A stretch of 64,000 bases of DNA, from positions 101,638 through 165,637 of the IMG/VR virus record IMGVR_UViG_3300023110_001773. One strand, 5' to 3'. This document shows, piece by piece, positions 25,938 through 61,751 of this stretch. Source of the DNA: a virus. The notes under the pieces were generated by a model. The model ran no database searches. It was not told the origin of the DNA and worked only from the letters and a program-made list of their open reading frames with translations. Each line of letters opens with the position of its first letter. The stretch's first letter is position 1. The position numbers and the translations under genes were made by a program.

Positions 25938-26219
25938 ATGGGCCCGTTGGATTATAAGGTGGAACCCATACCCCACTAGCCTTAAGCGGCTAGAGCATAA
26001 ACGTCATCGTTTGCGTTTACTTTAGGTTGGCACTTTGCCAGTCAATCAGTCTCACCTTTCCTAGACAATCGCAGTCGAACCTGTTCACCCCCATCAAAAG
26101 CACACTAGGAAGTCTTAATTTCGACACTGTACGTCCGTGCCTAATGTGCTTATGGTGGAGGTGGGGGGAATCGCACCCCCGTCCTACAATCTTTCAGTCC
26201 ACTTCAACGACCGATTCAA
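25938..26219 (-). ncRNA. ssrA: Circularly permuted (two-piece) tmRNA, tag ANDDVYALAA
   Basis: Acceptor piece ends GGGGG-TGCGATT-CCCCC-CACCTCC-ACCA (3' end 26153). A 60-nt hairpin spacer follows. Coding piece starts GGGGGTGAACAGGTTCGAC (26092). Acceptor stem has G3:U; tag ORF at 26014-25982. Confidence 0.93.
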
Positions 26220-26254
26220 TATTTATAATAACATGACTAGGCAGCAGATGTCAA
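26220..26254 (-). promoter_or_regulatory. Dual promoter for tmRNA: TTGACA-N18-TATTAT overlapping late TATAAATA
   Basis: -35 at 26254-26249; TATAAATA at 26227-26220. Confidence 0.7.
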
Positions 26255-26911
26255 TACCTCAGCCTCATATAAATCACGACATTCTAGTAAATAATCCACA
26301 TAATCGTCTCGTTTTTTGACAAATATCTGTGGTTCATCGTCTTGAACACCAATAATTACTACGCTTTTGTCAATAGGAATGCCAGTACGTTCCTCAAACA
26401 TAATTGCATAGGCAGAACACTGTGCAAAGTAGTTTTGAATATACTGTTCTTTCTTTGGTTTGGATGAGGTTTTGAAGTCTATGATGGAGAGTCTGCCGTC
26501 AAATTCTGCAATGCAGTCACACTGTCCGGCGAGACGGAGATGTTCACTGTATAGAAACTCTTCGACACAATGGATGTTGTCGATTCTATCAATGATAGGT
26601 TTCATCTTATTAAACATATCAATTTCAACAAAAGAGAGTTTGTCAAAACTCAACTCTTTGTTATTCACATAATCTTCGCAAACAGCGTGAATTTTCGTAC
26701 CACGAACAGAAGCTTGTTTGCTAATTCTGTTTGCCTTTTCTTCACCGACACGTTTGCGCCAAGCCTTGATGCCTGGTTTACTTTTGTGGCCGAGGACAGT
26801 GGTGACAGACGGGAATCTGACACCACTATCGGTTTTGTACATTCTTTTGCCTTCATAGTTTTCCCTAATTAACGAGGGAAGACTATAACTTCTTTCAACA
26901 TGATTAAACAT
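26237..26911 (-). CDS. PD-(D/E)XK exonuclease (T4-like phage exonuclease family)
   Basis: PSVTTVL, RGTKIH, AGQCDCIAE..IIDFKTS, Q..AYA. Confidence 0.88.
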   Translation of the reverse strand: MFNHVERSYSLPSLIRENYEGKRMYKTDSGVRFPSVTTVLGHKSKPGIKAWRKRVGEEKANRISKQASVRGTKIHAVCEDYVNNKELSFDKLSFVEIDMFNKMKPIIDRIDNIHCVEEFLYSEHLRLAGQCDCIAEFDGRLSIIDFKTSSKPKKEQYIQNYFAQCSAYAIMFEERTGIPIDKSVVIIGVQDDEPQIFVKKRDDYVDYLLECRDLYEAEVLTSAA

Positions 26912-54610: not shown

Positions 54611-55678
54611 ATGGCGCAGTCGGGAGCAGGAGCAGAGATAACAGCACTCTATGAGTCGTTGCAGGCTTACGCTTGTGCAGCCAGACAAGAAAAGGGAAGA
54701 GACCTTGAAAGTCTTTTTGAAATTAAAGCGTCAAATACAAAAAGTGCAGATTGCGACAGAACTTTAAAAGAATGCATGGATCAATTCAAAGGTGATGCGG
54801 GGTACAGTTATAGTATCATTGCAACTGCAAACAAATTTTTCAAAGACTACCAAATCAGAAGCGGGTACACCTTCCACAGAGGCAGTCAGAAAGTAGAAGG
54901 AATCTACAGAGAGTGGAGAAAGTATAAGACTGGTTCTGGGATGACAGGTGATGACAAATGGAATCCAGCAGACATCTGGGCGATCAAGGCTGGATATACC
55001 CAGAAAACCAACTGCAAGAACCTACAAGAGTACAATGATTTTGTATTAGATCAATACAATGCAAAAAAACTCATCGGCATTTCATTGAAAAAAGTCCCAA
55101 AGGGACAGGTGAAAACCAAAGTATATAACGATGGCAATAATAAAATAACTGCAAAATTCAAAGAAGTCAAACCAATGACAGACGTTACTGCATCGAAAGA
55201 TGTTTATCTAACCGTAACTTCTGACGGAAAGGATTTTGACATTCAGTTAAGAAACTTTTCTTCTAGAGCAGTAACATCATCATGGCAGGGTGAGGTAAAA
55301 GGAAAGTCAGCAGCCGGTGGTAAAATTGGTGGGGGTCTTTTGGTTGAACAGGCAAAATCTGGAGGCGTTACTGTAACTCCCCCCAATCAATTCAATCCAA
55401 ACCTAAAACCAACTGACACAGTTTTACGCAAATTTGCAACCATGTACAAAAAGATTGCTGGGACAACAAATAAAGAAAAACAAACAGAGGTAATTGCAAA
55501 AACAAAGGGGTTGGCTGCAGTCGATCCGACTTGGTGGATGTCCAAGTATCTGAGTGTATATTATGCACACGAGGTTTCTACTTCAACAAACAAAAACAAA
55601 GTGGCGAGTAAAATATACTCCTACGCATCATCCGCAACGGAGAACAGTAGTGTGTTTGTGAAGTATTATGACATATAA
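54611..55678 (+). CDS. Putative PD-(D/E)XK endonuclease
   Basis: DKWNPADIW...IGISLKK catalytic-like motif. Confidence 0.6.
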   Translation: MAQSGAGAEITALYESLQAYACAARQEKGRDLESLFEIKASNTKSADCDRTLKECMDQFKGDAGYSYSIIATANKFFKDYQIRSGYTFHRGSQKVEGIYREWRKYKTGSGMTGDDKWNPADIWAIKAGYTQKTNCKNLQEYNDFVLDQYNAKKLIGISLKKVPKGQVKTKVYNDGNNKITAKFKEVKPMTDVTASKDVYLTVTSDGKDFDIQLRNFSSRAVTSSWQGEVKGKSAAGGKIGGGLLVEQAKSGGVTVTPPNQFNPNLKPTDTVLRKFATMYKKIAGTTNKEKQTEVIAKTKGLAAVDPTWWMSKYLSVYYAHEVSTSTNKNKVASKIYSYASSATENSSVFVKYYDI

Positions 55679-55683
55679 AGAAA

Positions 55684-55866
55684 ATGAGCAGTTTATCGGA
55701 ACATGCTCAGGTTCCTGTTACGCTCCCGATAGCTGGGAGGGAGCAGTTTTTCCTTGGTCTGTTCTACCGCCGTTGCTCAGGGCGCCCAACGTTTAACGTC
55801 TATCTGACGGAGCAGTTTAAGGTAGGTCTGGGTGGGGTCATGCTCAGGAACCGCAACCGTATGTCC
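55684..55866 (-). ncRNA. Candidate ncRNA of three tandem H-type pseudoknot units
   Basis: Three copies of [stem]-CTGAGCA-[stem]..AAACTGCTC with covarying stems; dedicated promoters upstream. Confidence 0.7.
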
Positions 55867-55869
55867 GAT

Positions 55870-55908
55870 TATTTATACAAGTTTAACAAAAAAATGAGTT
55901 TAAGTCAA
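55870..55908 (-). promoter_or_regulatory. Dual promoter TTGACT-N17-TAAACT plus late TATAAATA
   Basis: -35 at 55908-55903, -10 at 55885-55880, TATAAATA at 55877-55870. Confidence 0.7.
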
Positions 55909-55929
55909 GGGGCTTTCGCCCCTTTTTTT
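55907..55929. terminator. Hairpin terminator AAGGGGC-TTTC-GCCCCTT with T tract (+); GAAA loop on minus
   Basis: Perfect stem between convergent transcription units. Confidence 0.75.
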
Positions 55930-57172
55930 AGTCCAAATCCATTGTTGCAAACTGGACATCTTTTTGGATGTGAGGAAGATTGAAAAACTCAACACTTAAT
56001 CCACGGGGTTCAAGAGCCCAAGTAAACATCTCTTGGTTTTCAATTCCCTTTTGACCATTGTTCCATTCTTCATAAAAACTAGGAAGAGCATGGCGAACCA
56101 ATACTTTGACCGTGTTGTGTTGTCCCTCAATCAAATCATCTTTGACGTTTCGCAACAGAGTTTGCAAACTGCCACCAGAACCAGAAGTAATTGTGTAGGC
56201 GAGAGTTGATCCATCAGCACGCAACTGACTAATCTTTTCGGCAAGTTTTGATTTGTGCGGTTCAACGTTATAGTCAATCATTTTCTGTCCAACCATATTC
56301 ATTTCTTGCACCTCAATCAATTTCTTTGCCTTCTTAGCGATGTTCTTTGCATTGCGGCGGGGAATGTTAAGGTCAACAAGAATCTCTAGCATTTCATCAC
56401 TGAGAGGATCGACATGTTCGTTGAAGTACATCGTTTCAATCATCTTGTTAAGATCATCTGGTTGATTGCGTTTTGGATCAATGACACTTTCGGGTTTGTT
56501 TAGATGCATACCCAAATAATCAATTTCAGTATCATTTAGATGTTCCCACTCTTCACGAGGAACACGGACAGTAGGAATATCCTTACCATGTTTTGAATCA
56601 GCGGTGCCTTCTGTAGAATGGTTTCCGCCGACCATAAGAGAACCATCAACACCGTACTCTGGGTCAGATTCATCGTAATACTCGTCAAGCAAAACGGCAC
56701 GCAATCCAAGTCCCACTGTATCACCATGTGCATCATCAATGGCATTCTGAATAGCTAGTTTATGGTTACGATCATCAGCTGCACGAACCTGTAATTTCGC
56801 AGATTTCAGAATTTCTTTTGCATCAGTAAGAACACCTTCACGACTCATGATATCATCAGCGAGTTCTTTTACTGCTTCTCGGTTGATCCCTTTACTAGCG
56901 GGTGACCCATTCGACTTGTTAAAGTACATGGGGTTAGACTTTGCGTTCACTGCTTTCAACATTTTATGCTCCTCGTTTCGCATTGTGTTGTAACTACCTG
57001 TCAGTAGTATTTCATAACAAAAATCCTCACGACTATTTCGTAGTAAGGAAGCAAACTCTTCATCCGTAGAAGAGTGATTGTATTCATCAGAGATCATTCC
57101 CTTATGAATTCCAATATAAATTCGGCCGGTTGGAATGTGAGTGTATTGATAAAGATATGCTTCGTATCTCAT
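55928..57172 (-). CDS. Protein with N-terminal GIY-YIG-like domain and possible ParB-like region
   Basis: YLYQYT..GRIYIGIHK..E..L..YFN; central VGGNHS. Confidence 0.55.
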   Translation of the reverse strand: MRYEAYLYQYTHIPTGRIYIGIHKGMISDEYNHSSTDEEFASLLRNSREDFCYEILLTGSYNTMRNEEHKMLKAVNAKSNPMYFNKSNGSPASKGINREAVKELADDIMSREGVLTDAKEILKSAKLQVRAADDRNHKLAIQNAIDDAHGDTVGLGLRAVLLDEYYDESDPEYGVDGSLMVGGNHSTEGTADSKHGKDIPTVRVPREEWEHLNDTEIDYLGMHLNKPESVIDPKRNQPDDLNKMIETMYFNEHVDPLSDEMLEILVDLNIPRRNAKNIAKKAKKLIEVQEMNMVGQKMIDYNVEPHKSKLAEKISQLRADGSTLAYTITSGSGGSLQTLLRNVKDDLIEGQHNTVKVLVRHALPSFYEEWNNGQKGIENQEMFTWALEPRGLSVEFFNLPHIQKDVQFATMDLD

Positions 57173-61675: not shown

Positions 61676-61751
61676 TGGTGCCGGTTGTAGGAATCGAACC
61701 CACGACCTACTGATTACAAATCAGTTGCTCTACCTACTGAGCTAAACCGGC
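61676..61751 (-). tRNA. tRNA-Thr(UGU)
   Basis: GCCGGTTTAGCTCAGTAGGTAGAGCAACTGATTTGTAATCAGTAGGTCGTGGGTTCGATTCCTACAACCGGCACCA; full cloverleaf with encoded CCA. Confidence 0.97.

Follow-up and report, generated by a model that had tools for sequence, protein, structure and literature searches.

Three H-type pseudoknots stand in a row on the minus strand of a 64,000-nucleotide (nt) stretch of viral DNA (positions 101,638 to 165,637 of IMG/VR record IMGVR_UViG_3300023110_001773; hereafter the window, numbered from its first letter), within a 249-nt intergenic gap that separates two convergent genes for proteins of 355 amino acids (aa; plus strand, ending at 55678) and 414 aa (minus strand, ending at 55928). 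An initial annotation made from the letters alone had proposed a structured minus-strand RNA of three covarying pseudoknot units in this gap, and we recovered the units where it had placed them, at 55852–55810, 55784–55741 and 55715–55685. That an RNA structure is under selection at this locus is very highly probable, and that it belongs to an independent RNA gene is probable. More specifically, and with slightly less than even confidence, we interpret the locus as a small, independently transcribed non-coding RNA gene of ~185 nt, which would run roughly from 55866 to 55685 on the minus strand. The carriers are a clade of uncultured marine T4-like phages. What is new here is a stand-alone, promoter-driven array of three knots with insertions in loop 3 (L3), conserved in this small clade.

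Structure and conservation of the array

Read along the minus strand, the gap contains a hairpin, a sigma70-type promoter, a late box, a leader, knot 1, a hairpin, knot 2, a hairpin and knot 3. In each knot, the loop closed by stem P1 pairs with the 3′ strand to form P2. From the promoter onward, the parts are as follows.

55880–55908 (−): sigma70-like promoter, TTGACT-17-TAAACT, with TG upstream of the −10 box; it starts the conserved block
55870–55877 (−): T4-type late promoter box TATAAATA, invariant in five homologues
55853–55866 (−): short 5′ leader with conserved ACGGUUGC; all five homologues have ACGGTTGC unchanged
55810–55852 (−): knot 1, with P1 GG(U)UC/GACC, loop CUGAGCAU, L3 insert CCACCCAGACCUACCUU (17 nt), AAAC, and P2 GAGCA/UGCUC
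55791–55809 (−): hairpin CGUC-AGAUA-GACG (55809–55797), then UUAAAC, directly behind knot 1 in the position of a second hairpin (hp2)
55741–55784 (−): knot 2, with P1 CGCC/GGCG, loop CUGAGCAAC, an L3 insert with invariant GAACAGACC, AAAC, and P2 GAGCA/UGCUC
55723–55739 (−): hairpin CUCCC-AGCUAUC-GGGAG, 1 nt behind knot 2 in the hp2 position
55685–55715 (−): knot 3, canonical and compact, GGAAC-CUGAGCAU-GUUCC-GAU-AAAC-UGCUC-A

The unit pattern CTGAGCA-N(3–33)-AAACTGCTC occurred three times in the window and not once in 100 shuffles, and these three copies were the only ones in the 165.6-kb virus record. When the entire genome was searched for compact knots by a generalised scan that put no constraint on the P2 sequence, knot 3 was the only match. 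The units are 31–44 nt long, are spaced 68–69 nt apart and have only the loop and the 3′ strand in common, P1 changing in sequence from unit to unit with its pairing kept. Knots 1 and 2 carry L3 inserts of 17–18 nt, and knot 3 is compact (2–3 nt plus AAAC, the 27-nt core type). For knot 1, a drawing with a bulged U is preferable, since this keeps the C-G closing pair of its family, described below. The 3′ flanks of knots 1, 2 and 3 are C, C and AUUUU, respectively. The minimum-free-energy fold was no better than that of shuffled sequences (z of −0.9 and −1.2 for the two strands), which is expected and uninformative because the folding program cannot score pseudoknots.

The whole three-knot RNA was conserved in four other phage contigs, namely L135 (identical to L325 and L328), L132 (identical to L330), L333 and L334. 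These were found through the neighbouring 355-aa gene and pattern scans, and with the window they make up the five homologues of a five-way alignment, on which the helices of knots 1 and 2 were compared by eye. Similarity began exactly at the −35 hexamer of the promoter, and the sequence upstream of it differed: L333 and L334 had unrelated upstream sequence with no hairpin, and L132 and L135 a different upstream gene. Identity was 76–87% across the RNA body, compared with 70–78% for the coding DNA of the 355-aa gene and 55–64% for a 195-aa gene nearby. A BLAST search of the locus against GenBank phages gave no match, and four relatives of the 355-aa gene (L131, L133, L134 and L136) occurred without the RNA.

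All helices were kept among the homologues by compensatory or neutral changes. P1 of knot 1 varied between GG(U)UC/GACC, GGUC/GACC and AGUC/GACU, and P2 of knot 2 read GAGUA/UGCUC in L135 and L333, a U-G wobble that is possible on the minus strand only. The loop of knot 1 was CGAGCAA in L135. Both linker hairpins named in the initial annotation (CGTC/GACG and CTCCC/GGGAG in DNA letters) exist and are kept in relatives. The stem of the first was retained around a freely varying loop and extended in L132 to 6 bp (CGUCUG/CAGACG); the stem of the second, CUCCC/GGGAG, was invariant, with its loop replaced in L132.

The inserts fared less uniformly. The initial annotation had pointed to CAGACC in both, and the motif was invariant in insert 2 (as GAACAGACC, in 5 of 5 sequences) but only partly kept in insert 1. 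It had also described the two inserts as mutually complementary (CUACC/GGUAG, CCUU/AAGG). This is true of the window, but the pairing was broken in every relative (CCACC, CCUCC, CUCCU/GGCGG) and therefore has no evolutionary support; a helix between the two inserts was ruled out by this lack of conservation. A scan for GAACAGACC...AACTGCTC returned 65 loci, of which the real ones were two known homologues and the others chance matches in coding DNA. As a separate observation, the knot 1 insert (55835–55819, minus strand; alignment columns ~136–152) is C-rich. The window reads ACCUACCUUA here, and the versions in L334 (CCCUCCUUA) and L132 (CCUCCUCUA) resemble the anti-Shine-Dalgarno end of 16S ribosomal RNA, possibly by coincidence.

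The knot family and its likeness to coremin

The same pseudoknot, defined by CUGAGCA...AAACUGCUC, was found in at least 119 viral contigs or loci with the exact pattern and, with a stricter pattern, in at least 119 bacterial or archaeal contigs from many phyla, including some archaea and with Saccharibacteria prominent. Its consensus is P1a (3–5 nt, ending in C) - C U GAGCA W - P1b - WW AAAC - UGCUC - A, and most copies, counted from the initial C of CUGAGCA, are 23 nt long. Pairing statistics were computed on 137 distinct members, in which 93% of cells pair, compared with 78% in shuffles and at most 38% when the partners were slid. P1 covaries massively, with each position using four Watson-Crick types, and P2 modestly (G-C/A-U/G-U at one pair, C-G/U-G/U-A at another, plus one inserted C-G pair). 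Read from the opposite strand, the recurrent U-G wobble would become an A-C mismatch, and the element therefore acts as RNA, in the window from the minus strand. The C-G closing pair was present in 121 of the 137 members, AAACU was invariant, WW was variable, and in 72% of members the trailing A added a sixth pair to P2 by pairing with U1.

All three window units have the P1 and loop of this family as well as its AAAC and UGCUC. A covariance model built from other phages only (R1) detected knot 3 at 35.7 bits (E of 1.3e-7) and knots 1 and 2 at 14.5 and 17.2 bits, the lower scores being due to their long L3 inserts. Rfam 15, searched at gathering scores and at E up to 10, held no family that covers the units, including the phage-associated DUF805-type motifs that the initial annotation had suggested. 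Literature searches with sequence strings, and with xrRNA (exoribonuclease-resistant RNA) or coremin combined with phage, returned no paper on the knot family in phages. Inserts in L3 also occurred in other members (L078, L085, L076), as did tandem pairs and triples between genes of other phages (L060, L026, L078, L326). The frame CGUC...GACG-UUAAAC, as in the first linker hairpin, forms a full knot in L322, L326, L329 and L247. We also observed the frame CGUC-loop-GACG-UUAAAC with other pairings (CUAAGCA/UGCUU, CCGAGCA/CUCG, GCCCC/GGGGC and UUUGGGC/GCCCAAA, in L322–L324, L326, L329 and L321/L331). Since loop-to-3′ pairings differ within one frame, the CUGAGCA type looks like a single subtype within a larger UUAAAC superfamily of pseudoknots.

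Judged by its sequence pattern, the phage knot closely matches a Watson-Crick version of the coremin or xrRNA-C motif of eukaryotic RNA viruses. The coremin of beet necrotic yellow vein virus (BNYVV) reads (N)GUC-CGAA-GAC-G-UUAAACUAC and is followed by a second hairpin; its C-G closing pair is sequence-specific, its loop starts with a pyrimidine (Y), U13U14 can be replaced, and A16–A20 are essential (Dilweg et al., PMC6546385). Coremin loops of 6–8 nt work, the heptaloop CGAGUAA resists Xrn1, and the motif also stalls scanning ribosomes (PMC10520033). In Watson-Crick variants, the loop GAG pairs with CUC, as proven by compensatory mutants, and the second hairpin is dispensable for their stimulation of frameshifting (PMC10321173).

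Like the coremin/xrRNA-C and xrRNA-WCC elements of beny-, cucumo-, hypo- and other eukaryotic RNA viruses, the phage knot has a short first hairpin (hp1, 3–5 bp) with a C-G loop-closing pair. Its loop starts with a pyrimidine and contains GAG, the sequence C(U)GAG(C/U)A(A/U) lying near the tested CGAGUAA, and its UUAAACU spacer combines replaceable UU with fixed AAACU, the loop pairing with the bases right after AAAC. Tandem copies are common to both, and the directly adjoining hairpin on which coremin's resistance to Xrn1 depends has a counterpart behind knots 1 and 2 of the window, though not behind knot 3. The linker behind knot 1 contains GACGUUAAAC, 10 nt of the BNYVV coremin motif, and may therefore be a degenerate fourth unit. 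The correspondence is not exact. Compared with the coremin consensus YGAD or YGNNAD, the phage loop CUGAGCAW starts with Y and ends in A-D but has an extra U before the G; after WW-AAAC-U, the phage reads GC(UC) where coremin has AC, and these phage bases pair with the loop as in the Watson-Crick type. Closer variants exist within the family, with L065 reading AAACUAC and L247 carrying GACGUUAAACUAC. Unlike coremin, the phage knot has an 8-nt loop, a P2 of 5–6 bp (at most 3 bp in coremin) and, in knots 1 and 2, L3 inserts of 17–18 nt; a second hairpin is not general in its family, its carriers are double-stranded DNA phages and bacteria, and its resistance is what we infer here. We found no paper linking coremin or xrRNAs to phages, and a study of nuclease resistance across kingdoms covers plant-virus class 3 xrRNAs and does not mention phages (PMC12397905).

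Family units are usually present in single copy, in gene orientation and just past a stop codon. Counted from that codon, the last base in the 5′ strand of P1 typically comes 8–15 nt later, with a sharp minimum at 8 nt, which is also the mode, leaving a free spacer of ~5 nt between stop codon and knot. The upstream genes are functionally unrelated (DUF932, ribonucleotide reductase, single-stranded DNA-binding protein, Hsp20, transglycosylases and tape-measure proteins). A same-strand transfer RNA (tRNA) lay 4–35 nt downstream of 18 of 264 units (at 4–14 nt for 16 of them), and no unit directly followed a tRNA. In L161 (7271–7347, minus strand) a knot stands directly 5′ of a type III hammerhead ribozyme, with cleavage 6 nt past the knot, and in L036 (261–445, plus strand) directly 5′ of a DUF2800 RNA (RF02960, 159.9 bits); L157 is a further contig listed for such ribozyme or DUF2800 adjacency. 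By position, this adjacency links the knot to RNA-processing sites. The window array differs from the usual placement, since knot 1 starts 76 nt past the nearest stop codon, behind a hairpin and two promoters.

Two observations concern the bacterial members. Contigs from metagenome-assembled genomes (L181, L211, L212, L139, L221, L227, L184 and others) contain a small open reading frame (ORF) with the ending ...C-x-E-G-C-x(3-4), which stops at a UGA within the knot's CCUGAGCA, placing the stop codon inside the pseudoknot loop; L013 is a viral example. In contigs of Candidatus Saccharibacteria (L137, L174, L187, L201 and L217, and L140, L180 and L199), the knot occurs at two or more conserved loci, and in this group it may be chromosomal rather than phage-borne.

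Transcription signals and neighbouring genes

The initial annotation had described sigma70 and late promoters like those of the transfer-messenger RNA (tmRNA) gene, with no ORF following, and both promoter types were found in the sequence. The permuted, two-piece tmRNA gene (25982–26215, minus strand, 102.9 bits) has TTGACA-18-TATTAT overlapping a TATAAATA late box directly upstream, at 26216–26260, so that by sequence the knot RNA and the tmRNA gene have the same dual sigma70 and late promoter design. The window contains 12 TATAAATA boxes, compared with 4.4 expected, several of them a short way upstream of genes and the tmRNA; the 355-aa gene is also preceded by one. Transcription of the knots probably starts at the leader. 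No credible ORF was found on the minus strand after the knots and no conserved ORF on either strand of the locus. The remaining features around the array are listed here.

55907–55930 (+): hairpin GGGGC-GAAA-GCCCC (stem-loop 55922–55909) plus T-run, intrinsic-terminator-like for the convergent 355-aa gene
54611–55678 (+): convergent 355-aa gene, phrog_1462, of unknown function, with knot 3 opposite its 3′ end in all homologues
55684–55983 (+): 99-aa ORF spanning the RNA gene, judged not to be a gene

The 99-aa plus-strand ORF would be a competing protein reading of the region, and the initial annotation had named its conservation, together with absent covariation, as grounds against an RNA. 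We looked at both: the homologues covary, and the ORF is not conserved. It gave no protein-family match, is broken into two frames in L135 and has no similarity to the L132 ORF, and indels across the homologous RNA genes are numerous and mostly not multiples of three. A protein product was ruled out by the missing family match, the split frame and the lack of conservation.

The hairpin at 55909–55922 scored as a terminator on the plus strand only, the U-tract on the minus strand being weak, and on that strand it directly follows the stop codon of the 414-aa gene. The messenger RNA (mRNA) of the 355-aa gene has to cross the RNA gene before it reaches this terminator. Since the GGGGC hairpin is found in the window, L135 and L132 and is missing from L333 and L334, the RNA gene can do without it. 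The arrangement recalls the PeSL cassettes of T4-type phages, in which a stem-loop terminator is joined to a sigma70-like early promoter (Arbiol et al. 2010, PMC2839356). In three of the five homologues the RNA likewise stands behind a stem-loop and a strong promoter of the sigma70 type, and the genes in the neighbouring slot vary. Unlike PeSLs, the window cassette is unique, with no further copy of the hairpin and promoter in the genome, and has an additional late promoter, and the stem-loop is missing from two homologues.

In the window, the 414-aa protein with a homing-endonuclease-like N-terminus (phrog_314) is encoded in a slot (55928–57172, minus strand) flanked by the RNA gene and the conserved 195-aa metallopeptidase-like gene. 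An unrelated protein of 405–411 aa occupies the same slot in L135:4316-5533 and L132:4318-5553, which makes it a variable cassette position. A search of the neighbours with PADLOC and Pfam revealed no toxin or defence proteins, a 162-aa protein giving only weak coiled-coil matches. The window also holds a single tRNA gene (61679–61751, minus strand, 77.4 bits), with no adjoining knot.

Possible roles of the array

The reading we favour, tentatively and at somewhat below even confidence, is that of a small RNA protected by its knots, resistant to nucleases and translocases and long-lived, with two exposed L3 inserts. Early and late promoters would drive the knot transcript. Each knot would then form a compact plug, in which the A-rich L3 lies along P1 and the 3′ strand locks the loop, and RNA-threading machines would stall at it; candidates are RNase J (a 5′-3′ exonuclease), 5′-end-dependent scanning by RNase E, ribosomes and Rho. 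From the opposite side, 3′ exonucleases would meet a structured end. Three successive knots, of which two have a coremin-type hairpin behind them, would make the transcript accumulate as a long-lived RNA, and the conserved single-stranded L3 inserts (CCACCCAGACC... and GAACAGACC) could provide its working surface. The initial annotation had included a nuclease-resistant scaffold among its suggestions, and this part remains favoured; resistance to nucleases or translocases is suggested by the likeness to coremin together with the placement of family members at RNA ends. That placement fits a role at RNA ends or boundaries. Precedent for breadth of action comes from a flaviviral xrRNA, whose fold is unlike coremin and which mechanically blocks bacterial RNase J1 (PMC5760640), so that such blocks need not be enzyme-specific.

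Several points weigh against this reading. No terminator was found after knot 3. The family's placement after stop codons, before tRNAs and ribozymes and never after tRNAs fits a 3′-end cap at least as well as a 5′-3′ block, and coremin is known only as the latter. Bacteria are not known to have Xrn1. Pseudomonas contigs also carry family members, and as Pseudomonas is not known to possess RNase J, this enzyme would not be a universal target. A hairpin directly behind the knot was present in 16% of the family, compared with 9–19% in controls; it is not enriched and was dropped as a family-wide feature. Moreover, since the array lies 76 nt from the nearest stop codon, the family context may not transfer to this locus.

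An unlikely alternative treats the array as a boundary element, in which the knots would be the structured tail of leftward transcripts and act as bumpers against 3′ exonucleases entering the upstream messages. Such transcripts would either read through the weak minus side of the 55909–55922 hairpin or start at the promoters, at a convergent junction that lacks a proper minus-strand terminator, that hairpin looking like one on the plus strand alone. At other loci, the great majority of units sit behind the stop codon of the gene upstream, and because units precede RNA cut sites (tRNA 5′ ends and hammerheads) they end up at the 3′ end of the upstream fragment; the intergenic tandem pairs and triples of L060, L026, L078 and L326 would also suit a boundary role. 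However, conservation at this locus begins at the −35 box, the upstream context differs and the hairpin is absent in two homologues, the RNA is retained in L132 and L135 although an unrelated gene has replaced the one upstream, and no other gene in the genome is followed by such a knot.

Irrespective of the upstream context, the RNA gene invariably points at the 3′ end of the 355-aa gene, which speaks for a cis-antisense role, in which the transcript would enter the 3′ end of this convergent late gene and modulate its mRNA, with the knots as a stabilising 5′ head. Without a terminator past knot 3, and with the 355-aa mRNA crossing the RNA gene, complementary transcripts are expected if both are made, and the TATAAATA box ahead of the 355-aa gene would also be in keeping with such pairing. 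We nevertheless consider this role improbable, since four relatives hold the 355-aa gene without the RNA, and the overlapped region is constrained by coding, so that no independent antisense signal can be read there.

The initial annotation had itself leaned towards a multivalent decoy or anti-defence RNA, mimicking a type III antitoxin such as ToxI or sponging a host factor. ToxI mimics encoded by phages are known, tandem pseudoknot-forming units also make up the type III antitoxin RNAs (ToxI, CptI, TenpI), the array has strong promoters and no ORF, and the conserved single-stranded inserts could be binding sites. The window units, however, share only ~16 conserved nt and differ in P1, L3 and spacing, unlike the near-identical 34–36-nt repeats of the antitoxins. 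They have neither sequence similarity to them nor an Rfam match, no toxin gene of the ToxN/AbiQ type or defence-family protein lies nearby, and the unit is common, from phages to bacteria of many phyla, as one copy at a gene boundary, a distribution not expected of a specific antitoxin mimic. The antitoxin claim thus did not hold up, and we regard a decoy of any kind as very doubtful.

Still less credible is a tRNA-acceptor-like pseudoknot that signals to RNase P or RNase Z, in which P2 stacked on P1 would mimic the acceptor and T arms, with U-1, G+1 and a discriminator A. The CU/GAGCA junction does supply U-1 and G+1, A follows UGCUC in about two-thirds of viral units, ACCA is the commonest 4-mer after viral units (12 of 111) and ends knot 3 of L132, and a bacterial and archaeal distribution would fit a universal enzyme. 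Yet only ~6% of genomic copies carry ACC and ~1% ACCA, and the ACC signal comes in part from the first stem of adjoining hammerheads or DUF2800 RNAs; a tRNA-like ACCA tail is confined to a subset of viral contigs and was rejected. The window flanks are C, C and AUUUU, no tRNA model matched the units, a second site 4–14 nt before a tRNA would be redundant, and the A is engaged with U1 as the sixth P2 pair in most members. A small ligand-sensing riboswitch, comparable to preQ1-I in size class, H-type topology, A-rich 3′ loop and very high loop conservation, can be set aside almost entirely, as no Rfam family matched at E up to 10, the units follow rather than precede genes of unrelated function, several occur per genome, and no gene follows here. 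The knots also resemble the compact H-type −1 frameshifting pseudoknots of the luteovirus type (e.g., beet western yellows virus), in which an A-rich L3 runs along P1 ~5–8 nt past the A-site codon. Unlike those, the window knots have no ORF closely preceding them, and since phage knots follow stop codons, often in all three frames, no recoding product is possible.

Returning to the knot-protected RNA, its nearest functional parallel would be the tandem xrRNAs of flaviviruses, which likewise set several pseudoknotted units in a row to yield a stable non-coding RNA, the subgenomic flaviviral RNA (sfRNA). The flaviviral units differ in having a three-way-junction ring fold and in being made by trimming the 3′ untranslated region of the genome, not from a promoter of their own. 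A phage counterpart of sfRNA, in which the coremin-type array survives decay and stalls or ties up a host exoribonuclease or another RNA-threading enzyme, is a long shot. If true, host and phage RNA turnover would be reshaped during infection, and one structural type of exoribonuclease-resistant RNA would span plant or fungal RNA viruses and the DNA viruses of bacteria. The locus is a good entry point to these questions, with its own promoters, no tied neighbour gene, three natural variants and covariation to guide mutants, so that fold, stability and partners can be addressed on one short synthetic construct. Exoribonuclease-resistant RNAs have so far been a feature of eukaryotic RNA viruses; if the phage knots work by the same mechanism, the principle would extend to prokaryotes, and bacterial RNA biology and synthetic biology would gain a 27-nt stabilising module.

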